A DNA stretch of 64,000 bases from a bacterium (GTDB lineage: Bacteria > Bacteroidota > Ignavibacteria > Kapaibacteriales > UBA7675): NCBI GenBank assembly GCA_030430495.1, contig JAUIKM010000030.1:40-64039 (forward strand), written 5' to 3'. Position 1 is the stretch's first letter. Each line of letters opens with the position of its first letter. The notes under the pieces were generated by a model, which made no database searches, was not told the DNA's origin, and saw only the letters and a program-made list of their open reading frames with translations. The position numbers were made by a program, and so were the translations under genes. This document shows positions 32,629 through 45,007 of this stretch, piece by piece.

Positions 32629-35600
32629 CTAGTCCAGCGGAGGCACCTGCCCCGGATTCACGACGCCAAAATTGGGCGTAAACAGCTGCACGAAGTCGTC
32701 GGCGCTGATGGAATTGTCGGCGTTCAACTCACCTGACAATGCGCCCAGGACGTCGCCGGGCAAATCTGTTAACCAGAGCAGACCGCCGACGACATTTGCC
32801 GACTGACTCAGATCAACATCCGCCGGACTGCCGGCCTCCAGCAAAACAGGCGCCGCGCTCGCCAGAGGAATGTGCCCTCCGTGGCGAACGACAAGCCAGT
32901 AGCTGCCGTCGGCCAGGCCGTCAAACTCAAACCGAGTGCTTGCGCCGGTGCTGTGCAAAGCCGACGCGCGCGCCACGACGGCCGAAGTCGACAATTCGGG
33001 TCCTTCGCGCAATTCAAGCATGAAAGGCGTTCGTTTGTGTGATTCGCCGTTCCAGTAACCCTGGAAGTACACTTCAACGTCAACGACAATCTGATCGGGT
33101 GCGGATGCCGTTACAACGGCCTGTGTTGCGCCAACATCAAGCGTGAAGCCGACGCCGCCGGGCTGCGTAGCGCCGACGACCGCCGCAAATGCGCCGGTTA
33201 CCGACTCGTACTCCATGATGACAAACTGCGCGCCGTCGGCCGGAACAAAGCCGTCGATCAAAGCAAGGCTCAGTTCACCGTCGAGCGTCAGTACTCCCTC
33301 GACGATCAGTTTGTCAAAACCGCTGCCGGGTTCCACGCCGCCAATCTCTATCTCAATGGTCGATGTCGAAGTTAACTCGTAGTCGCTGCCTATTGTTAAC
33401 ACGCCCGGCGAACGGCCCGGGCTGGTGGTGCCTGCATTGGACGCTCCTCCCGGGATGACCGAAAAAGTACCGTTGCCATTGATGACAAAGTCGCCCGGCA
33501 GCAGGACCTTCTCATCTACTGCCAGGGTCAATCCGGCCTCAATCAATTCTACACAGGAACTTTCTTCGGTCAACAGCAGCATGGAAATATCCGGTACTAT
33601 CATTTCCAGGTTTCCGCCGGCAACAGAGACTTTGCCTTTTTGGGTAAACAGCATCTGACCGTCGAGAGTGAAAATTGCAACTGTCGCGGTTTCCATCTGC
33701 GGTTTGCCGTTGTACCCTATCAAACCACAGTTGACGATCTCCGTATTATCACGAGCTTCCACGAGATTGTTTGTGACCGTACAGTCAAAGTTCAGGGTCG
33801 CTCCTGTGTGATTGACCAGCTTGGCATCATCCCGCAGTTGAACATGTGCCTTGTTTGCGGCGCGATTTCCATTAGTCACCACGACGTTCTCATGTACCGT
33901 CGGCTGCCCTATTCTGGCATCTCCGAAGTTGTCGAACAAGCCGTTGCCCTGAAGTTCAATCACCGCCGCCGGATTGGCCGTCGTGGCATTAAACTTTCCG
34001 TTGTTTCTAAAAGTACCGGAACCGGAGGCCAACACAACTGATGTCGTAACCACCTTGCGAACTTCAACCCGCCCATTGTTGACAAATGCCGCATTGTTTT
34101 CTACCAGCACGGACGCTGTTGTTCCTTTGAATTGCGGCACAACATTGTTCGACGGTAAAACAAGATCTCTGAAGTCAACTTTGCCGTTGTTGATAAATTC
34201 CCCGGCTCCGCCGAGATTGATGTGACCTGACGGTTGGGACGGCACAACCTGCGTCTCATCACGTGGAAATAACGTGCTGAAATTAACCTGACCTTCATTG
34301 ACAAACCTGGCATTGTCTTTCACATCGACGCCGCCGGGAACCTGAGCTGTAAAGTTCTCCGGCTGCGGTGCTTCATCGGCGGGCTTGACATCAAACGTGC
34401 CGCCAAAACCATTGAAAAACCTCGCGCCACCGCTCAATTCAAGGCCTTTAAATTTCTCCACGACAACTGCCGCAATCGTCCGCGTTGGAGACTGAACAAT
34501 AACGGACCCGAAATTGTCAAACTTTGCGTTTCCATTAACCGCGATTCCGGCATTGGTGATAATCGGATTGGCCTTCTGCACAAAAGCACCGTGATTTGTA
34601 GCGACGACCTGACCCATGAAGTTAAACGACGAACCGGGCAGACCGTTGGAAAAGTCTATCTCTCCGTTTATGCCGTTGTTAAAAATTGTCGACCCTTCAA
34701 ACTCGACGCCGACAACAGCCCGCAAATTCTCAATCAGACCTTGGTTGCTGAAGTCCGCATCAACGAATTTCAACGTCGCCATAGTGCCGGGCACACCAAT
34801 CTTCACCATCCCTTTGTTGTCAAATTTCCCGTGAAACTCATTCGCGCTGATATTCACACTGCCAATAAAACCTTCCGGCGAAAACTGAACAACGGAATTG
34901 GGATCAATATTGACGTCGCCAAAGAATTTGTTCACGCCGACAACATTGGCCGTTGGAGCGGCAAAAGACAAGGACGCGGTGGTGTTGAGTTGTGATTGGG
35001 CAATTTCCACCACCGACGATGTGATCAGAATCGGATCGTTCAATTTGGAGAACCCCACACTGAACACTCCATCACCCTGAAAGACGGTCGCGGAAGTATT
35101 GAAAATATCCGCATTACTCAGGAATGCCGTCCCGTTATTGTGAAACACATTTGACGCCCCCTTGAAGAAGAGCTTGCCAATTGGCCCCTGCATCGAGATG
35201 GAGACTATTGCCGTAGTGAATGGGACATCGATGTTGCCAAAAGTAATCGGTGACGGCTTGACCATGTTTTTCACATCATTGTCAACGGAGAGAAAAGCAT
35301 CATCCCCCTTGATATTAAACGACCCTTTGGCGCTGTTGATAAATGCATCGGTAGCAAACACGCCGAGTGAGGCCGTCGTAAACACGTTCACACTGCCGCA
35401 GTTAGTGAATTTTGCGCCGTCTTCAAGGTCCAGATTACGTGCGTTAAACACACTGCCTTCCGCCGCCATCGAGTTGACCTCGCCCTGATTTTCAAACTCG
35501 CTGCCTTTGAATACAGCTTGCAGCACTGAGAAGTTAGCCGTCCCTTCCGTTCCAAAGTTGACCTTTCCCTCGTTCAGAAAGTCTGCGTTAAATTCAAAAA

Positions 35601-36780
35601 AACTCGTAAACGAGCCGAACGAATGAAAATTCCAGATCGCCTCTTCCAGATTAAACAATTCGCTGTTAAAAATTCCGACGCCGATCACATCCATTTTCCC
35701 CTGGTTGTCAACGGGTGAGGTATCTTCAAAAACCGAGGTTCCGAAAAACCTGGCACGTGTACAGGCTACCGTAAATGTTCCGTTGCGCACGGTTGTATTG
35801 TTGAACTGGTAGGTGCCGTCGCCCAGAACGCGCCCCTCGCGCGGCTCAAACGTGCCATTGTCGATCGTCATCACGGTGCCGACGGTCACCAGAAGTTTAC
35901 CGCCGTCGTTGATAAACGTCGATCCTCCCACATTGGCAACCGTCACATTGGCAAAAGAAGAATTCACAAGGCCGCGATTAACAAAATTCTGCCGATTTTC
36001 GATTGTCAAAGGATGAAAGGCAACCACATCGCCGTTGTTGATAAAGCTGGTCGCATTGCCGGCGGAAAGCAGTCTTTTGCCGCCCGCATTTGGCACGGTG
36101 CAGATCGTCGCACCGGTAACATTCACAAATGGCGCATTCGCACCGCCTGTGTACTGAATTTTCGATTCTTCGCCGCTTTCGCTGGTCAGTGTGATTTTCC
36201 CCTGGTTTGTTCCGCCCTGCACGACTAACAAAGAGGGGAAGTTTTCATTGTTGCTGACAGAAAGGACAGCATTTGTTCCGTTAACAAAACTGCCCAGCAG
36301 TTGGCTTGCGGAAGCAACCGGGTTTTCGACAAATATTTCGCCGGCATTGTGCAGCTCATTGTTAATCGTTGAACTGAACAGATCCAGGCCGCCGCGATTG
36401 TCTATCCGTCCTGCTCCGCCGACATCCATCTGTTTAAGTTGCACCACGGCGCGATTGCCGAAAGTGGAGCGTTGCGCCAGAGTCAACGACTGCCCGGTTC
36501 CGACAACCGTCTGCGTACCGCCTGTGCCGCCGACCTGAAGAGAGTTTACCGCGGCATCCTGATCGAGGTTGACCTGATAAGTGCCCGATGTTGTGATGAA
36601 CACCTCGTCCCCTGCGCCCGGTACCTGACCGCCGCTCCAATTGGCGGCATCGCTCCAGTTGCCATTGACGGGGTTTTTCCAGAAGACATCGGCCGCACTG
36701 CATTCAGGTGAGATCAACAAAACAAAAGTTCCGCACACGGCCAGCAACGCGGCGGACATGCGCAATGTCGTCGCAATCAT
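32629..36780 (-). CDS. Giant secreted beta-helix/adhesin-like protein (1383 aa), paralogous ends to the 1594-aa protein
   Basis: Signal peptide. N-terminal FWKNPVNGNWSDAANWSGGQVPGAGDEVFIT. Asn/Gly-rich degenerate repeats. The penultimate IEIGG...FDKLIVEGVLTLDGELSLALIDGF.P..G..F.I.EY block and the final 150 aa align with 26799-27260 and end in the identical NFGVVNPGQVPPLD. Confidence 0.85.
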   Translation of the reverse strand: MIATTLRMSAALLAVCGTFVLLISPECSAADVFWKNPVNGNWSDAANWSGGQVPGAGDEVFITTSGTYQVNLDQDAAVNSLQVGGTGGTQTVVGTGQSLTLAQRSTFGNRAVVQLKQMDVGGAGRIDNRGGLDLFSSTINNELHNAGEIFVENPVASASQLLGSFVNGTNAVLSVSNNENFPSLLVVQGGTNQGKITLTSESGEESKIQYTGGANAPFVNVTGATICTVPNAGGKRLLSAGNATSFINNGDVVAFHPLTIENRQNFVNRGLVNSSFANVTVANVGGSTFINDGGKLLVTVGTVMTIDNGTFEPREGRVLGDGTYQFNNTTVRNGTFTVACTRARFFGTSVFEDTSPVDNQGKMDVIGVGIFNSELFNLEEAIWNFHSFGSFTSFFEFNADFLNEGKVNFGTEGTANFSVLQAVFKGSEFENQGEVNSMAAEGSVFNARNLDLEDGAKFTNCGSVNVFTTASLGVFATDAFINSAKGSFNIKGDDAFLSVDNDVKNMVKPSPITFGNIDVPFTTAIVSISMQGPIGKLFFKGASNVFHNNGTAFLSNADIFNTSATVFQGDGVFSVGFSKLNDPILITSSVVEIAQSQLNTTASLSFAAPTANVVGVNKFFGDVNIDPNSVVQFSPEGFIGSVNISANEFHGKFDNKGMVKIGVPGTMATLKFVDADFSNQGLIENLRAVVGVEFEGSTIFNNGINGEIDFSNGLPGSSFNFMGQVVATNHGAFVQKANPIITNAGIAVNGNAKFDNFGSVIVQSPTRTIAAVVVEKFKGLELSGGARFFNGFGGTFDVKPADEAPQPENFTAQVPGGVDVKDNARFVNEGQVNFSTLFPRDETQVVPSQPSGHINLGGAGEFINNGKVDFRDLVLPSNNVVPQFKGTTASVLVENNAAFVNNGRVEVRKVVTTSVVLASGSGTFRNNGKFNATTANPAAVIELQGNGLFDNFGDARIGQPTVHENVVVTNGNRAANKAHVQLRDDAKLVNHTGATLNFDCTVTNNLVEARDNTEIVNCGLIGYNGKPQMETATVAIFTLDGQMLFTQKGKVSVAGGNLEMIVPDISMLLLTEESSCVELIEAGLTLAVDEKVLLPGDFVINGNGTFSVIPGGASNAGTTSPGRSPGVLTIGSDYELTSTSTIEIEIGGVEPGSGFDKLIVEGVLTLDGELSLALIDGFVPADGAQFVIMEYESVTGAFAAVVGATQPGGVGFTLDVGATQAVVTASAPDQIVVDVEVYFQGYWNGESHKRTPFMLELREGPELSTSAVVARASALHSTGASTRFEFDGLADGSYWLVVRHGGHIPLASAAPVLLEAGSPADVDLSQSANVVGGLLWLTDLPGDVLGALSGELNADNSISADDFVQLFTPNFGVVNPGQVPPLD

Positions 36781-37335: not shown

Positions 37336-37674
37336 TTTTTCCGCCTGAACGGACCTTGCGCTTCACGTCCGGCCCACAACAAGACAAGCGCCGCAGTCCA
37401 TCCGTCAAACCGATCTGCGGAGCCGGGAGCACTTGCAAATATCGCCGCAGTGTTTTTGTCGGCCGCCACGCACAAACGGCCCTTTTTCCGACTTGATAAA
37501 TCCCCTCTTGTTAGTCGGCGGGAGCGAAACGACCAGCCGCCGGGCTGCAAACCTCTTTCGTCTTCGAGCCCGCAAATGATCGGCCCCATTTTTGTTCCAT
37601 ATCCTCATCCGACAGGCGAATACCAGCGCAAATCAGATGTTCAACGCCCCCCGATCCCATCCAGGAGTACTATC

Positions 37675-38985
37675 ATGCAACGACTTATCACAACCGTCAC
37701 AGTGGTTTCAATTCTCGCCGGCTGCGCCGTCTGGCTTGTCGGCGCCGACGACCGCGCCCCCGTTCCCGCTCCGCGCGTGTCCGCTGATTCCCTCCGTGCA
37801 ACGCCGCCGCTCTCGACCAGACTGACGCCCGCGCCACAGGACCCGTCCTTCGCAGCGCCGGCGCTGGACCGCAGCGCTCCGGTGGAACCCGCCGCCGCGC
37901 CGATCACAAAACCGAGCGACGGCGACGACCTGATACAACTGGCTTTGTTGCTCGACTGCAGCGGCAGCATGGACGGACTGATTTCCCAGGCGCAAGCTTA
38001 TCTGTGGAATATCGTCAACGAACTTTCGGCCATGCAGCGCGACTACCGTCCGGCGCGCATGGAACTGGCGCTGTACGCCTACGGCATTGAAGCTCCCGGC
38101 GGCGCAAACGACTACGTCACCCGCATTGCAGCCTTTACCTCGGACCTCGAAGCCATTTCCGCCAAACTCTTTGCGCTGGAAACGTCCGGCTCGGTCGAAC
38201 TCTGCGGCAAAGTGTTGCACCGCGCGCTCGACGAACTGGAGTGGAGTAAAAATGAGAATACATTGCGCATCATGGTGATCGCCGGCAACGAGTCTTTTGC
38301 CCAGGGTCTTACCGATTTCCGCGCCGAGTGCGAACGCGCCGCAAGGGATCAAACCGTGATCAACACGATTTTCTGCGGCAACTGCTCGGAGGGTGTTGAA
38401 CTGATGTGGCGCGACGCCGCGCACCTGGCCGGCGGAACCTACAACTGCATCGATCACAACGACGAAATTCAGGACGTCGCCACGCCCTATGACGGCATCA
38501 TCGACAGCCTCAATCAGGAGCTGAACGACACATACATCGGCTATGGCCACGGAGGCGCCGAACGCAAATCAATGCAGTTGTACAATGATGCCAATACGGG
38601 GCAACTCAGCAAGGAGCAGTCCGTCAACCGCACAATCGTCAAATCTTCCGACGCGTATTCCAACGGCAGCTGGGACATCGTCGACGCCGTCGCCGCCGAA
38701 GAGTTGGATCTCGAAACGGATGAAGACCTGCTGCCGGAGCGTTTCAGTGAAGCAAGTGTGGACGTACGCAAATTTATGGTGTCGGAGTTGGCGGACAAAC
38801 GCGGCGAGGTGCGCCGCCGGATCCAGGAAACAGCCGAGCTGCGCGGCCGATACCTCAGCGAACTGCCCCGGCCCGCAAAACCCTCCTTTGCCGACGCCCT
38901 GGTGCGCAGTCTGCGCGAACAGGCCGCCGCGCGTGGTTTCAAACAAAACTCCACCGTCAAAACTGACACGCTCGGCACAAAATGA
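37675..38985 (+). CDS. von Willebrand factor type A domain lipoprotein
   Basis: AGGAG lies 8 nt before ATG 37675. Lipobox ILAGC. MIDAS motif DCSGSM in LALLLDCSGSMDG. 436 aa. Confidence 0.78.
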   Translation: MQRLITTVTVVSILAGCAVWLVGADDRAPVPAPRVSADSLRATPPLSTRLTPAPQDPSFAAPALDRSAPVEPAAAPITKPSDGDDLIQLALLLDCSGSMDGLISQAQAYLWNIVNELSAMQRDYRPARMELALYAYGIEAPGGANDYVTRIAAFTSDLEAISAKLFALETSGSVELCGKVLHRALDELEWSKNENTLRIMVIAGNESFAQGLTDFRAECERAARDQTVINTIFCGNCSEGVELMWRDAAHLAGGTYNCIDHNDEIQDVATPYDGIIDSLNQELNDTYIGYGHGGAERKSMQLYNDANTGQLSKEQSVNRTIVKSSDAYSNGSWDIVDAVAAEELDLETDEDLLPERFSEASVDVRKFMVSELADKRGEVRRRIQETAELRGRYLSELPRPAKPSFADALVRSLREQAAARGFKQNSTVKTDTLGTK

Positions 38986-40450: not shown

Positions 40451-40558
40451 ACCGATGGGCATATCGGTTTAACATCTGGTGTGGCACACAGAGTTTTCGG
40501 TTCGAGCGCAGGGGGGCAACTTGCGTTAGCATGTCAAAAAATTCGAGCCGAAAACGCC

Positions 40559-40591
40559 GAGGCGATCCGCAAGGATCGCCTCGATTGTTTT
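40559..40591. terminator. Bidirectional terminator between the LVIVD gene and sigZ
   Basis: GAGGCGATCC-GCAA-GGATCGCCTC, with GATTGTTTT on the plus side and GGCGTTTTC on the minus side. Confidence 0.8.
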
Positions 40592-40614
40592 AAACAGATG
40601 GTAACACAGCCGAG

Positions 40615-41202
40615 TTAACTACCCGAGCATTTGTCGCAATCGGATTGATTGACGCCGGGTCCGCCACGACGCTGGAAGTCAACTATCCCGCCGCGCACAT
40701 CCTGTTCCACCCGGCAGCAGTCCAGAAACACCTCGCGCAGTTTCTCCCTGCCGCGCTGAATGCGCGACTTTGCACCGGACAAACTCAGCCCCAGAATTTC
40801 AGCAGTTTGCGCCTGACTTAAACCGTCGATGTCGGCCAACTCCACTGCGCGGCGATGCGCCGGATCGATCTGCGCCAACAGCGGCAGCATACACTGCGCC
40901 AGCGCTTTCCCGGCAGATTCCTCTTGTTCGTCGCGCAGTTCGAGGTTCTCAGTTAAACTCTCGCCCTGCGGCCGCCCGCGGCGGTAGTAGTCGGCTATGG
41001 CGTTGCGCGCAATCCTGAACAGCCAGGCGTGCAGTTTGCCGTCGTCCAGCAGACTGTCGCGCTGCCCCAAGGCGCGGGCGATAACATCGTGCAGCACGTC
41101 CTCGGCATCTTCCGCATTGTCAATGCGCTTGCGCACAAAACCGTGCAGCATCGACCGCGCGCGGCTCCACGCCGCCGTTTCCACCTGCTTGTCCGTTTGC
41201 AT
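40615..41202 (-). CDS. sigZ: ECF sigma-70 factor, SigZ type, with a C-terminal Cys-rich extension
   Basis: 195 aa from ATG 41202; the 369-aa track ORF is an upstream read-through artefact. Region 2 is AEDVLHDVIARA...HAWLFRIARNAIADYYR. Region 4 is GLSQAQTAEILGLSLSGAKSRIQRGR. The tail is FLDCCRVEQDVRGGIVDF...CDKC. Confidence 0.82.
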   Translation of the reverse strand: MQTDKQVETAAWSRARSMLHGFVRKRIDNAEDAEDVLHDVIARALGQRDSLLDDGKLHAWLFRIARNAIADYYRRGRPQGESLTENLELRDEQEESAGKALAQCMLPLLAQIDPAHRRAVELADIDGLSQAQTAEILGLSLSGAKSRIQRGREKLREVFLDCCRVEQDVRGGIVDFQRRGGPGVNQSDCDKCSGS

Positions 41203-41305
41203 GATTTTCCGCCCACCTGAACGTGTTAACATTGTTTCCTCCCGTGGACGAGGAACATGGGCAAATCGTATCCGCCGCGAACGGCGAGACTCGTCATGCG
41301 CCGCT

Positions 41306-41647
41306 TCAGGATTCGGACTCCGTTGCGCAGCAGGAGGCATCGGCAGCGCAGCATTCCTCGGCAGCGTCCGGGGTGCAGCAGTCGGCGCTGTGAGCAGGTT
41401 CGCAGCATGAACTGACCGCATCCGCGGAACAACACGACGAAGACGGCGCGCAACAGGAACAAATATAAACAGGCGCGCAGCAGACGGCAGCATTAACAGG
41501 CGCACAACACTGAACGACCGGCGCCGGCGCACAGCAAACGGCGCTGCGGAATTGTCTGCTGTTTGCAGATGTGTTTCGAACGGATGTTGTTGTGTGCGGC
41601 AGGACGCAACATGCGCCCGCAAATGCAGAGTATTGGAAATACAACAT
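41306..41647 (-). CDS. Hypothetical Cys-rich protein with nine regularly spaced CC doublets
   Basis: 113-aa ORF with GAGG 9-12 nt before the ATG, 21 Cys and no signal peptide. The 27-bp-like periodicity is in frame. The alternative frames give low-complexity Arg/Leu junk. Confidence 0.55.
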   Translation of the reverse strand: MLYFQYSAFAGACCVLPHTTTSVRNTSANSRQFRSAVCCAPAPVVQCCAPVNAAVCCAPVYICSCCAPSSSCCSADAVSSCCEPAHSADCCTPDAAEECCAADASCCATESES

Positions 41648-41857
41648 GGCTTTAACCTCAAGAGTACGTTGACGTGTTTGTCGTTTGCACTCCTGCTGAC
41701 GCCACTTCCTGTCAAAAGACGCAAAAACGTTTTCGCTGTGGGTTGATCAGCGGGCGCTTCGGGGTTTTAGCTTGTCTGCTAATTGCGTGCCAAAAACAGC
41801 GTTTTCAGTAAAAATCGTGGTGACCGGGGCGGGATACCCTGTTAAGCGGTCAATATT

Positions 41858-41904
41858 TCAGGTTTAAAGAAATGAGCTGTGAGCCCTTAGGGATCACAGC
41901 TCAT
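41858..41904 (-). terminator. Terminator of the FG-GAP/ASPIC gene
   Basis: 11-bp stem ATGAGCTGTGA / TCACAGCTCAT (41872-41882 / 41894-41904), followed on the minus strand by TTTCTTTAAAC. Confidence 0.7.
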
Positions 41905-41920: not shown

Positions 41921-44389
41921 TCAACGAAGCTCAAGCCGCACAGTCCTCAGCTCCAAACCGGCTTCAAGTTCAACAACATACGCGCCCGCAGCCAGCCCCG
42001 CAACATCGAGCTCAAGACGCGGCGCACCCGCCTGAAACTCACCGCTTAAAACCTCGCGGCCCAGCAGCGAACGAACAACATATCGGCCCGAAGTCCGGTT
42101 GATGTCGTCCAGCACAATTGATACGCGTCCGCCCTCAACCGGGTTCGGATAAGCCCGCAGCTCCTGTTTAACGTGCGGATCGCCGACCGAAACCTCGCTA
42201 TGCTCGCCCTGGCGGATCGTCACGTTCTGACCCGCGATGAAGGGACCGAGGAAGTACTCGTTAACATCCGTGCCCGGCCAACGCACCGCCAGTCCTGTTA
42301 ACAAATCGTTTTCACCCAGGCCGAAGTGCTGCCGCGCCGGCCGTTGCACGCGCACGCCGCTGCCCGCGTTAACCTCGCGCGTCATGATGCCGGAAGCGCC
42401 GTAGGCCGTGATGCGCGCGCCGACGGCCTGCGCCGCGCCGCCCTCAGGCACAAGCGACACCCGCACGGAGCCGCCCGCGTCCGGATTAACATTGTGATAC
42501 AGTCGCAGTTGGCGCTCCGACGACATAAACATATCCAGGCGGCCGTCGTTGTCGTAGTCCACAAAGGCCGGACCGTAGACGCGGTTCCAGTTGCCGCCGC
42601 GGTGGTTCTGGAATCCGTAGCGATACGTCGCCCATTCAAAAGTGTGATCGGGCTGCTGTTCGTACACCGCGGAATAACGACAGCGATAAAAACTCGGCAT
42701 AAACACGTCCAGCAGACCGTCGTTGTTTAAGTCCGCCATCGCACCGCTGCCGAAGGCGTCTTCATAGCGAAAACCATGCGTGCCGAACAGGTCGGTAAAC
42801 CGGCCGTCGCCGTCGTTGCGGTAGAGCGTCGTCCAGCGGTGATCAAACTCAAAGTTGCGCACGTGCGCCACCTGCGTCACCAGCAGGTCCAGGTCGCCGT
42901 CGTTGTCGTAGTCGCCGAATTCGCCGCCGGTACCGTGCGCCGAACCGCCCTGATCGTTAATATCCAGCCGCGCGTCGGCCGTCACGTCCGTAAACACCAG
43001 GTTGCCGTCGTTGCGGTACAGTTCGTCGCGCTGCAGCACGTAGTTGATCACCAGCAGGTCCTGATCGCCGTCGTCGTCGTAGTCCGCCCAGCGCGCGCCG
43101 CCGCGCGTAAAAGTCTTGTTGTTCACCAGCGTGTAAAACACATCGCTGCGGTCGGTAAATGTGCCGTCGCCGTTGTTTAAGTAGAAGTAGTTCGGCAGCG
43201 AAACCGGCGGGGTGGGCGGATCCCATTCGAGCCAGCTCTGACCGACAAAAAAGTCGGGATACCCATCGTTGTTGGCGTCCGCAATCGCAATGCAGGAAAG
43301 TCCGCCGTTTTTATCGTTGACCGCCGGCGCTTCCGGCCACTCGCGCGCCGTGAAATTCTGATTGCCGTCGTTGATGTAAAAGCGGCCAAAATCCTTGCTG
43401 ATGTGAACGATGTCAAGATCGCCGTCGCTCTCCAGATCGATAAAGGCGTTCGCGCCGTAAAGATGCGGCAGCTCGCCGATGCCCGCGCTCGCCGTTATCT
43501 CCTCAAACGTCCCGCCATTGTTGCGGAACAGTCGGCCCGAAGCCATCAGGTCGATAAATGTATCGCCGTCCAGATCCGCCAGTGCGACGGTCTCCCAGCG
43601 AATATCGTCCGGCAGCCCGGCCGCCGCCGTCGCGTCCGCAAAGTAGGGCGCGGCGTGCTCCGGCTCGTCGATCAGCACGTCGATCATGAAAGCGTTGTTC
43701 GTCACCACGCCCTGCTGGTTCTGGTTGATCGCATAAGTGCCGTCGCCCAGAGAAAACACCTGAAGCACATTCTGGGCCTGGCCCGGCGCGCTGCAGTAAA
43801 TCTCGTGATCTATGTTGTCCGACACCGTGGAGATGCCGCTGCCGAATTCGTCGATCGCCACAAAAAAGTAATGCTCGTCGACCGGCACCGGCGTGGGCAG
43901 TTGCACTTCGACCAGTTCCACCTGCGTGTCGCTGCTGAGTTGTTTGTTGACCGTCACCGGCGGCATCAGGTCCGCCTGCAACTCCGGCAGCGACGTGCCG
44001 CCCTCCTGTCCAAAAATCCGCAGACGCACCGTTCCGGCGGGACCAATCAGCCCGACGCGCACCGAAACTATGTTGCCCGGCGCATCCAGTTTGAACCAGG
44101 CCGCCTGCAGCGGAAAACGATCCGTGTCAAAAGGTCCGCGGAATCCCTGACTGTCGTCCCAGGGCTGCAAGCGCTTTTGCACCGCCGTGGCGTCCGACGC
44201 GGATTTACCGCTGCGCACCACCTCCGGCACGCCCAGATATTCGGGCGGCCGCGGCAGGGGCAAGGTGTGAACGGCATCGTCCAGCAGAGCTGGATCGGCG
44301 AGATTCTGCGCATTGACCGGGATCGCGGCCGCGGCTGTCATGGTGGTCAGGACGGCAAGAATCGACAAGGCACTGGTTGCAATCTTCAT
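41921..44389 (-). CDS. FG-GAP/VCBS repeat, ASPIC/UnbV (CRTAC1-like) protein with a T9SS C-terminal sorting domain
   Basis: 822 aa from ATG 44389 (signal peptide MKIATSALSILAVLTTMTAAAA). Repeated D.D.DGD.D(L/I) Ca-binding FG-GAP motifs. The C-terminus is LRAYPNPVEGGRVSIVLDD...GAYVVELEAG... Confidence 0.82.
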   Translation of the reverse strand: MKIATSALSILAVLTTMTAAAAIPVNAQNLADPALLDDAVHTLPLPRPPEYLGVPEVVRSGKSASDATAVQKRLQPWDDSQGFRGPFDTDRFPLQAAWFKLDAPGNIVSVRVGLIGPAGTVRLRIFGQEGGTSLPELQADLMPPVTVNKQLSSDTQVELVEVQLPTPVPVDEHYFFVAIDEFGSGISTVSDNIDHEIYCSAPGQAQNVLQVFSLGDGTYAINQNQQGVVTNNAFMIDVLIDEPEHAAPYFADATAAAGLPDDIRWETVALADLDGDTFIDLMASGRLFRNNGGTFEEITASAGIGELPHLYGANAFIDLESDGDLDIVHISKDFGRFYINDGNQNFTAREWPEAPAVNDKNGGLSCIAIADANNDGYPDFFVGQSWLEWDPPTPPVSLPNYFYLNNGDGTFTDRSDVFYTLVNNKTFTRGGARWADYDDDGDQDLLVINYVLQRDELYRNDGNLVFTDVTADARLDINDQGGSAHGTGGEFGDYDNDGDLDLLVTQVAHVRNFEFDHRWTTLYRNDGDGRFTDLFGTHGFRYEDAFGSGAMADLNNDGLLDVFMPSFYRCRYSAVYEQQPDHTFEWATYRYGFQNHRGGNWNRVYGPAFVDYDNDGRLDMFMSSERQLRLYHNVNPDAGGSVRVSLVPEGGAAQAVGARITAYGASGIMTREVNAGSGVRVQRPARQHFGLGENDLLTGLAVRWPGTDVNEYFLGPFIAGQNVTIRQGEHSEVSVGDPHVKQELRAYPNPVEGGRVSIVLDDINRTSGRYVVRSLLGREVLSGEFQAGAPRLELDVAGLAAGAYVVELEAGLELRTVRLELR

Positions 44390-45007
44390 AGGTTGTTCCT
44401 GGTTGTTGAAATCGCGCGGTTGAATGAAACCGGCGCAGGGGCAGCGCCGCATAAATTCCAAAAATTCGCGCTCAATACGAAGTCTGATGACAACACCTGC
44501 CAACCTGCCAGGGTCTCAACCCGTTCCGGCGCGGACCCTCTTACCCGCCTTTTGCATGACTTTTTTGCTTGTCGCGCAGCCGGAAACTGCGAGCCTGTTT
44601 TTGAGCGTCAAACGCCCGGACCCGGCGCCCGAATTCCTCGTGTGAGACGCGCAGCGGCCGGCGGATGCTTTCATGCCCCGGAGCCCGCCGACACTGTGTC
44701 GCAAGGCCGCGGGCCAAACAAGAGATTGCAAGGAAACATCAGCGAAAAACGGCCACAATGAACAATTTTTCATAATGAATTAATTGAAAAGGACGCCAGT
44801 GATTTGCAGTTTGCGAGTCGCTAAAAATCTGCAAGGCGCAGGAAGTCGGTTTCTCCCGTTTCGGGACTCCGTTGTGCAGCGATGGCGACGAAGGCCATCC
44901 GCCGGTTTCCACAGGGATTTGGGGACAGCATCAGAAAAGGTCGTGACATTTCACAGTCCAGAATCGACTCCGCGATACGAGAGCCGCTGCGCTCTCCGGC
45001 CGGATTT

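Follow-up and report, generated by a model that had tools for sequence, protein, structure and literature searches.

A periodic cysteine-doublet gene in front of sigZ: a putative thiol-responsive operon with a predicted link to arsenic

What is the role of a short open reading frame (ORF) crowded with cysteine doublets that stands directly in front of a sigma factor gene? The question is raised by a 64-kb stretch of contig JAUIKM010000030.1 (hereafter, the window), in which an ORF of 113 amino acids (aa) rich in Cys-Cys (CC) doublets precedes sigZ, the gene for an extracytoplasmic function (ECF) sigma factor. An earlier note on this DNA had read the two genes as a thiol-sensing sigma factor paired with a metallothionein-like protein, with copper-responsive CorE as the model. 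In the present analysis, the CC ORF was found to be a real and conserved gene that is tightly linked to sigZ and lies behind a strand-specific motif shared among sigZ loci, and in relatives the same motif stands before arsenic genes. The function that we deduce for the locus, with a probability of roughly 0.55, is that of an autoregulated operon encoding a thiol-sensing sigma factor together with a sponge or chaperone of the thiolate type, whose ligand is probably As(III). The features on which the argument turns are as follows.

40615–41202, minus strand: sigZ, encoding an ECF sigma factor of group ECF238 (SigZ branch), 195 aa; TIGR02959, with Pfam Sigma70_r2 and r4_2
41306–41647, minus strand: CC-repeat ORF, 113 aa, ATG start, ten CC doublets; proposed (predicted) thiolate metal(loid)-binding protein
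41656–41659, minus strand: Shine-Dalgarno (SD) sequence GAGG of the CC ORF, read from the sequence and kept in two relatives, L002 and L004

The start of sigZ is located 103 nucleotides (nt) downstream of the CC ORF on the same strand. The sigZ product scored 173.4 bits against the NCBIfam equivalog TIGR02959, above the cutoff of 168.65, and 175.7 bits against a second model, NF007215, under the cutoff of 212. Sigma70_r2 (residues 15–77) and r4_2 (residues 106–155) were the only Pfam domains found. The protein ends in the tail ...FLDCCRVEQDVRGGIVDF...CDKC, which contains DCCRVEQ, and its four tail Cys residues (C162, C163, C189, and C192) lie within the last 34 residues. Among 42 SigZ homologues, C162-C163 is invariant and C189 is conserved in at least 90%. 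The passing of the TIGR02959 cutoff and the CC...CxxC tail thus bear out the earlier assignment to a SigZ-type ECF sigma factor with a Cys tail. SigZ and CorE2 share group ECF238, which is characterized by a short Cys-bearing C-terminal extension and by the lack of an anti-sigma factor (PMC7826278). In agreement with the earlier statement that no anti-sigma gene is present, Pfam detected no anti-sigma domain in the flanking proteins (FG-GAP/ASPIC and LVIVD) or in the CC ORF. An in-frame ATG at 41230–41232 (minus strand), 30 nt before the sigZ start and with a strong GGGAGG 5 nt ahead of it, would extend the product by 10 residues (MLTRSGGRKI); since L002 has AAG there and a 1-nt indel, this codon is not conserved and was rejected as the start of sigZ.

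The CC ORF itself had been read exactly as to coordinates, strand, and 113-aa sequence. Its GAGG is separated from the ATG by 8 nt and thus occupies the positions 9–12 nt upstream. The product has 21 Cys among 113 residues (~19%), and the sequence properties of its N-terminus gave no signal-like segment, both as counted and described before; it is acidic, with 9 acidic and 3 basic residues and an isoelectric point of 4.39. The CC doublets start at residues 13, 38, 47, 56, 65, 72, 81, 90, 99, and 106 and are separated by gaps of 23, 7, 7, 7, 5, 7, 7, 7, and 5 residues. A tenth doublet near the N-terminus is therefore to be added to the nine evenly spaced ones recorded earlier.

No match to the protein was obtained in Pfam or NCBIfam (E ≤ 1) or among PDB sequences (E ≤ 10), in line with the earlier remark that it resembles no described family. 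A word-indexed search of 5.8 billion proteins and an exhaustive phmmer search over 1.8 billion representatives likewise gave no match. Public gene callers left the interval empty, and an exact-sequence look-up indicated that the ORF is uncalled in public assemblies. These blanks would be expected of a spurious ORF, an open frame arising incidentally from the sigZ leader or from non-coding DNA that is rich in GC and contains repeats, and the sigZ frame of the window likewise has no stop across the region, which gives a 369-aa ORF starting from a TTG (40615–41724, minus strand).

The homologues with which this explanation could be weighed were supplied by synteny via SigZ, the direct homology searches with the 113-aa protein having been blank. 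L002 is a metagenome-assembled genome (MAG) contig (CAYULF010000002.1) whose SigZ is 94% identical to that of the window, and L004 is a metagenome contig with a SigZ of 74% identity. They contain CC ORFs of 131 aa (L002:3503-3898) and 97 aa (L004:1236-1529), respectively. The L002 record carries the label "uncultured Hyphomicrobiales"; the nearest named SigZ homologues come from Rhodothermaceae and Bacteroidetes MAGs, the FG-GAP/ASPIC protein encoded next to the operon has a weak match to a sorting domain of the type IX secretion system (see below), and the label may be wrong.

The CC frame was the only one that is stop-free in the window, L002, and L004 alike. The in-frame indels between the window and L002 amount to 48 + 6 nt, or two units of 27 nt, each corresponding to CC plus seven codons. 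TRF found a 27-nt tandem repeat of 2.8 copies in L002 and no tandem repeat at the DNA level within the CC ORF of the window. Twenty of the 21 Cys residues are retained from the window to L002, seven of these via TGC/TGT changes, and the identity at the remaining positions is 50 of 92 residues (54%). The ratio of nonsynonymous to synonymous substitution rates (dN/dS) was 0.26 for the CC ORF and 0.08 for sigZ. Furthermore, the ATG, the SD sequence, and ~80 nt upstream are nearly invariant in the three sequences, while the flanks diverge. The comparison with related genomes that the earlier note had called for thus came out in favor of the gene, with the frame and the CC spacing kept in relatives and the Cys codons changed synonymously.

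Based on the maintained frame, the 27-nt indels, the retention of Cys, the dN/dS value, and the conserved ATG and SD sequence, the CC ORF is judged to be a real, translated gene for a fast-evolving repeat protein, whose CC doublets and period are under selection. A spurious ORF is accordingly hard to credit: the CC frame alone is open in all three sequences, insertions and deletions come in multiples of 27 nt, Cys is kept by way of synonymous codon changes, and the core module recurs in 213 database proteins. The 369-aa frame was rejected as a gene, since it is closed by stops in both L002 and L004; that it is open in the window is attributed to chance sequence composition, not to a sigma factor of greater length.

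In order to place the CC protein among relatives, the regular expression CC-x(5-8)-CC-x(5-8)-CC was applied in six frames to the window and 83 SigZ loci (368,711 nt in total), which include 80 metagenomic loci at 33–48% SigZ identity and one, L005, at 51%. Seventeen matches were obtained in 12 loci and the window. All 17 belong to the ORF that immediately precedes sigZ on its strand; the remaining sequence gave no match. Upstream sequence of at least 200 nt was available for 74 SigZ loci, to which this count was limited, and the CC module lies upstream of sigZ in 12 of them. The CC-ORF/sigZ pair recurs in L002 and L004, and 10 loci of lower SigZ identity (33–51%) have shorter CC-x7 ORFs ahead of sigZ, so that the two-gene module supposed earlier is supported by its recurrence.

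In the distant loci the module reads CC-[SP]PAEQA[ST]-CC-EP[SA][EA]KA[SAG]-CC-...-GCGC[RKQ]. In L005, L006, L007, L011, L030, and L072 it stands alone in a small ORF (44–95 aa), and in L015, L039, L050, and L082 it forms the C-terminal tail of a thioredoxin-fold protein of the DUF2703 type. A profile built on it matched 213 database proteins of 44–113 aa, all annotated as "hypothetical" and with no Pfam assignment beyond a few DUF2703 matches. The full module, with three CC-x7 doublets and GCGC, is also fused to ArsM-like sequence, at the C-terminus in P0155 and at the N-terminus in P0169. Three CC peptides (P0144, P0226, and P0168) are encoded on long contigs; a SigZ-type sigma gene adjoins each of the three, co-directionally in L086 and L087 and convergently in L088, and the promoter motif described below lies upstream of each. 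Among the 120 listed members used for spacer and terminus statistics, the x7/x7 spacing is present in all, Q occupies position 5 of spacer 1 in 111 and K position 5 of spacer 2 in 119, and the terminus is GCGC[RKQ]. The core family has exactly three doublets.

The window protein shares with this family the CC-x7 period, with at least three CC doublets at x7, and the genomic slot between a SigZ-type promoter and sigZ. When 1,497 six-frame ORFs were ranked with the module profile, the L002 homologue came first and the window ORF second, with weak matches, and local similarity was seen between CCSADAVSSCCEPAHSADCC in the window and CCSADEQASCCDPAERAGCC in L015. The proteins of the window, L002, and L004 have 6–11 doublets and a distinct N-terminal MxYxQ...CC segment, and they have no Q, K, or GCGC. 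As judged by sequence comparison, they are probably a divergent, expanded branch of an unnamed CC-x7 family, and the 6–11 doublets arose by amplification of the 27-nt unit.

A small, Cys-rich, repetitive, and fast-evolving ORF also recalls a ribosomally synthesized and post-translationally modified peptide (RiPP) precursor, an alternative raised earlier in which the Cys residues would be substrates for modification. No modification, protease, or export genes were found flanking the module in the window, L002, L004, L005, L086, or L087. The leader/core architecture is absent, and the module also serves as a terminal tail of enzymes. We consider a RiPP-like precursor highly improbable.

The conserved, tight gene order raises the further explanation that the CC protein is a partner of SigZ, which as an anti-sigma factor or co-sensor would hold SigZ inactive, or activate it, until a signal arrives, through shared metal or mixed disulfides. 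Translational coupling is often suggested by the arrangement, the genes in L005 being 1 nt apart and the DUF2703-CC tails in L039 and L082 overlapping (−4 nt). Moreover, CC motifs are present in both the CC protein and SigZ, and the regulator of an ECF sigma factor is usually encoded on the same transcript. However, the module is present at only 12 of the 74 loci, and therefore SigZ would work without it in most organisms. Its fusion to ArsM and DUF2703 enzymes, and spacers that evolve fast with a repeat number ranging from 3 to 11, are unlike a specific protein interface. The HxxxCxxC motif of ZAS anti-sigma factors is absent from the 113-aa sequence, in which HSADCCT is the nearest stretch, and Pfam gave no anti-sigma domain. 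In addition, the characterized ECF238 members need no anti-sigma factor (PMC4937300). The anti-sigma alternative of the earlier note thus gains little support, chiefly on account of the many loci that lack the ORF and of the enzyme fusions, and a partner role of either kind is regarded as unlikely.

Unrelated Cys-rich mini-ORFs were also seen directly upstream of sigZ (L041:2365-2442, L069:80-229, and L025:1-144), examples being MNEETISCCCPDCEEGCCGGLGCNC and a CTCTNC/CxC-rich 49-mer. The occurrence of unrelated Cys-rich ORFs in one slot suggests that what is selected there is thiol richness rather than a particular protein-protein interface.

The conserved block upstream of the CC ORF contains an octamer, GCGTCTTT, whose k-mer counts are strand-biased in the loci, with 33 forward and 5 reverse occurrences. 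Alignment of these occurrences gave a bipartite element, tTTTGCGTC(C/T)TTTT-N11-CTCCGTCTATA. Both strands of the 84 SigZ sequences were then scanned with the regular expression GC[GA]TC[CT][ATC]TT-N10-14-CGTC. The bipartite consensus TTGCGTC(C/T)TTT-N11-CTCCGTCTA was found 80 times on the sigZ strand and not once on the other, in 65 of the 84 sequences. A fixed geometry of 25 nt from the G of GCGTC to the C of CGTC was kept in 66 of 71 motif instances. The motif is situated upstream of the sigZ transcription unit in 38 loci and 3–46 nt past the sigZ stop, before the next gene, in 42 loci; L070:590, L014:3067, and L038:1679 are examples.

In the window, the motif was recognized in the following elements.

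41714–41723, minus strand: −35 element TGCGTCTTTT of the SigZ-type promoter, matching the −35 block of the motif and kept in L002 and L004
41698–41701, minus strand: −10 element CGTC in the context GGCGTCAGC, 25 nt from the G of GCGTC; the pattern TGCGTCN{15,18}CGTC matches 41698–41723

This is the sole site of the motif in the window (41698–41723, minus strand), ~50 nt upstream of the CC ATG. Its position weight matrix score was 21.3, compared with 6.2 for the next best site in the window and 17.7 for the best of 20 shuffles. With a CGTC-type −10, fixed spacing, and self-association, the motif has on sequence grounds the architecture of an ECF promoter. Because of this architecture and the association with sigZ, SigZ is the probable reader of the motif. 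The conserved upstream block was rejected as a classical AAC...CGT ECF promoter or a sigma-70 TTGACA promoter, owing to wrong spacing and the lack of a −10 element.

The first gene behind the motif was classified automatically, three small CC ORFs being assigned by hand. For the 80 instances it was ArsM in 35, sigZ in 17, a CC-x7 ORF in 9, ArsI/CadI in 5, DUF2703 in 4, and another gene in 10. The assignments of ArsM, an arsenite methyltransferase (NF008823), and of ArsI/CadI, from the C-As lyase/CadI family (NF041414), exceed the curated cutoffs. The position of the motif ahead of arsM, after the sigZ stop, implies a SigZ-arsM regulon, which would be previously undescribed. A DUF2703 gene sits in the As-induced ars cluster of Rhodococcus (PMC6514093). 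Because the shared promoter would drive ArsM, ArsI/CadI, and DUF2703 in relatives, arsenite or organoarsenicals rather than copper are indicated, and the likely ligand shifts from copper to arsenic. The copper analogy with CorE drawn earlier is a loose one, as the CxC linker motif is absent from the window SigZ. A cultured organism offers a further case: the ars cluster on plasmid pSCD of Sulfuricella denitrificans (L090, NC_022358.1 57529-66029), comprising acr3, a gene for a GDCCVxC protein, a permease gene, arsM, a thioredoxin gene, and arsC, ends in a SigZ-like sigma gene. The pSCD sigma factor is without the usual CC after region 4, and there the promoter motif comes after the sigma gene, ahead of TolC/RND efflux genes.

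Other neighbors of sigZ also have CC-containing tails or thiol- or metalloid-related features. ArsM-like methyltransferases with CC-containing N- or C-terminal tails adjoin sigZ at L056:1-738 and L063:2-118. A channel of the major intrinsic protein (MIP) type resembling aquaporin Z, with a CC-bearing tail, is encoded upstream of sigZ at L013:333-1040, and a weakly MerT-like membrane protein with several CC pairs is encoded downstream of sigZ at L037:3873-4415; the last two are thiol- or metalloid-related neighbors.

The same data bear on the idea that the CC protein is a thiol/redox buffer or disulfide-relay protein for oxidative or disulfide stress, with SigZ as a redox-sensing sigma factor. 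The very high Cys density of the CC protein would suit such a function. The module is associated with the thioredoxin-fold DUF2703, which bears CxxC (PMC6514093), and some ECF sigma factors sense redox by Cys pairs, such as SigK of ECF19 (PMC7826278). The predicted regulon, however, is dominated by the arsenite methyltransferase and ArsI/CadI, not by redox enzymes. Disulfides formed by vicinal CC pairs are strained, and such pairs typically serve as ligands of As(III) and soft metals. A redox role for the pair is therefore rated as quite improbable.

We infer the following course of events for an operon that would sense and bind a thiol-seeking metal(loid). SigZ, which has no anti-sigma factor, would sense the metal(loid) directly via the invariant C162-C163 together with C189/C192, and active SigZ would transcribe its own operon. 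The co-expressed CC protein would be cytoplasmic, acidic, and probably disordered until loaded. It would bind the inducer via its vicinal-thiol arrays, in which two neighboring CC pairs may offer S3/S4 sites, and would thereby detoxify or chaperone the metal(loid); the withdrawal of the inducer would act as negative feedback on SigZ. The most likely ligand would be As(III), or methyl-As(III) or Sb(III). In this form the pairing of a thiol-sensor sigma factor with a metallothionein-like protein holds up as to the module and the predicted thiolate-type function, and copper gives way to arsenic as the expected ligand.

Several observations weigh against this operon model. The tblastn search of the window with ArsM, ArsI, and DUF2703 seeds gave no match, and the neighbors of the operon in the window are unrelated to metals. 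The arsenic link therefore rests on relatives at 33–51% SigZ identity. Every locus in the promoter survey was picked for containing sigZ, the assignment of the motif to SigZ is one of association, and the −10 region of the window, GGCGTCAGC, deviates from the consensus CTCCGTCTA. The window protein lacks the family Q, K, and terminal GCGC and ends in CCATESES, and its match to the module profile is weak and driven by composition (E 8e-4, with a heavy bias correction). The AlphaFold model of the CC protein, made with no alignment input, had a pLDDT of 48.7 and no confident fold, and therefore structure lends no support. Finally, CadI and a weak MerT-like neighbor occur at SigZ loci, and Cd, Hg, Cu(I), and Zn remain candidate ligands.

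The extent of the transcription unit was considered from the promoter and from three hairpins.

41874–41886, minus strand: terminator-like hairpin 3' of the upstream FG-GAP/ASPIC gene, from a consensus scan; 5-bp stem and T-rich tail
41659–41695, minus strand: putative hairpin of 9 bp in the 5' untranslated region, from RNA folding, ending at the first G of the SD sequence
40558–40583, either strand: 11-bp GC-rich hairpin between the convergent sigZ and LVIVD genes, from a consensus scan; on the minus strand it is followed by GCGTTTTC

Given the promoter site at 41698–41723 and the hairpins at 41874–41886 and 40558–40583, the best reading of 40558–41723 (minus strand) is one small operon, predicted to consist of the SigZ-type promoter, the CC ORF, sigZ, and a terminator. 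The hairpin at 40558–40583 is a likely bidirectional terminator ending the operon. The one at 41874–41886, a weak match, may mark the start of the independent transcription unit; the scan returned 3 sites compared with 2.4 expected from shuffles. The hairpin at 41659–41695 folds with −16 kcal/mol (z = −2.24; 3 of 200 shuffles equal it), and its sequence is almost invariant in the window, L002, and L004 in spite of the diverging flanks, with no covariation. It could be a regulatory or stabilizing element. The operon is flanked by genes unrelated to it, which encode an FG-GAP/ASPIC protein with Por_Secre_tail, an LVIVD protein, and SBP_bac_5. The FG-GAP/ASPIC protein (860 aa, 41921–44503, minus strand) ends in a weak match to Por_Secre_tail, the sorting domain of the type IX secretion system (25.3 bits; cutoff, 27). 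Two large ORFs near the module, 32629–36780 (minus strand, 1383 aa) and 37450–38985 (plus strand, 511 aa), had no Pfam match at E ≤ 1e-4.

A wider proposal is put forward tentatively, and we hold the odds to be somewhat against it. SigZ-type ECF238 factors would be direct sensors of As(III) and organoarsenicals and the first arsenic-responsive sigma family, reading TTGCGTCCTTTT-N11-CTCCGTCTA and controlling arsM across many phyla. The CC-x7 proteins would then form a new class of "arsenic metallothionein" or chaperone, which evolves by amplification of the 27-nt unit, buffers the inducer, and tunes the sigma response. In the literature, no paper tying SigZ or ECF238 to arsenic or arsM was found in a search that did not extend to the supplementary data of the ECF reclassification and ECF-Hub, where an earlier in silico mention is possible; nor was a paper found that describes the CC-x7 module or the bipartite promoter. 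An unannotated protein family, a new promoter and regulon assignment, and possibly the first arsenic-responsive sigma factor would be the novel parts.

To our knowledge, bacterial arsenic regulation is attributed almost entirely to ArsR-family repressors. If the proposal is true, an ECF sigma factor driving arsM, arsI, and thiolate sponges would constitute a second, widespread route for the regulation of arsenic methylation, a process that controls arsenic mobility and volatilization in soils and sediments. SigZ (ECF238), an orphan as to inducer and regulon, would acquire a signal, a promoter, and a set of targets that can be tested. The CC-x7 proteins form an unannotated family, missed by gene callers, with a simple periodic architecture of predicted metal sites that expands by repeat amplification, and this architecture would be of interest for metal(loid) biochemistry and for the design of biosensors or bioremediation. 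As a defined pair whose input is probably a small molecule, the promoter and its sigma factor would also be a candidate orthogonal switch.

Among characterized systems, CorE and CorE2 of Myxococcus xanthus (formerly ECF44, now ECF238) resemble the window SigZ in having only sigma2 and sigma4 and no anti-sigma factor (PMC7826278, PMC4937300). Metals are sensed by these two factors through their own short Cys-bearing C-terminal extension, on which the metal-dependent activity relies, and no anti-sigma factor takes part (PMC4937300). The CxC linker motif is confined to the former ECF44 group (PMC8999054); in the window SigZ, a single Cys is found instead (ALAQCMLPLL, with AQCM), and the consensus of the SigZ homologues is ELAxCLxPLI. 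The window SigZ has four tail Cys residues arranged as CC...CxxC, whereas CorE-like proteins have approximately six Cys in 28–38 residues. Furthermore, CorE-type genes adjoin cation-efflux and copper genes, not genes for ArsM or CC peptides, and no Cys-doublet partner protein is described for CorE-type sigma factors. By these comparisons the window sigma factor is a member of SigZ/ECF238 and not CorE-like in the strict sense. Bacillus subtilis SigZ (TIGR02959; ECF238 subgroup 9), like the window SigZ, is an equivalog with C-terminal cysteines and no anti-sigma factor, and its inducer, regulon, and promoter are essentially unknown (PMC7826278). The arsenic-gene linkage and the promoter motif reported here stem from environmental relatives, not from Bacillus.

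As for the CC protein, its vicinal Cys pairs recall ArsD and ArsR, which use vicinal Cys pairs and a third thiol for As(III) and are encoded and regulated with arsenic-detoxifying genes. ArsD, however, is a folded thioredoxin-like dimer with three vicinal Cys pairs, whereas in the window protein ten pairs form a low-complexity array with a fixed 9-residue period. No relationship to ArsD or ArsR was found in sequence (Pfam, NCBIfam, and PDB) or in fold, AlphaFold having given no confident one. The As(III) site of ArsR-type sensors is a Cys triad that includes a vicinal pair, and ArsD has a chaperone role (PMC9807832). Metallothioneins (SmtA/BmtA and MymT) and eukaryotic Cys-rich repeat proteins are likewise small, Cys-rich, and predicted to be unstructured without metal, and metallothioneins are expressed under a metal-responsive regulator, as is proposed for the CC protein. 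No match of the CC protein to any metallothionein family model was obtained (Pfam and NCBIfam, E ≤ 1; PDB, E ≤ 10). The CC protein differs from metallothioneins in having CC doublets at x7 (x5) in place of CxC/CxxC clusters and in being paired with a sigma factor and not with an SmtB/ArsR repressor. The CC protein would thus work like a metallothionein or an ArsD-type thiolate binder while belonging to neither family.

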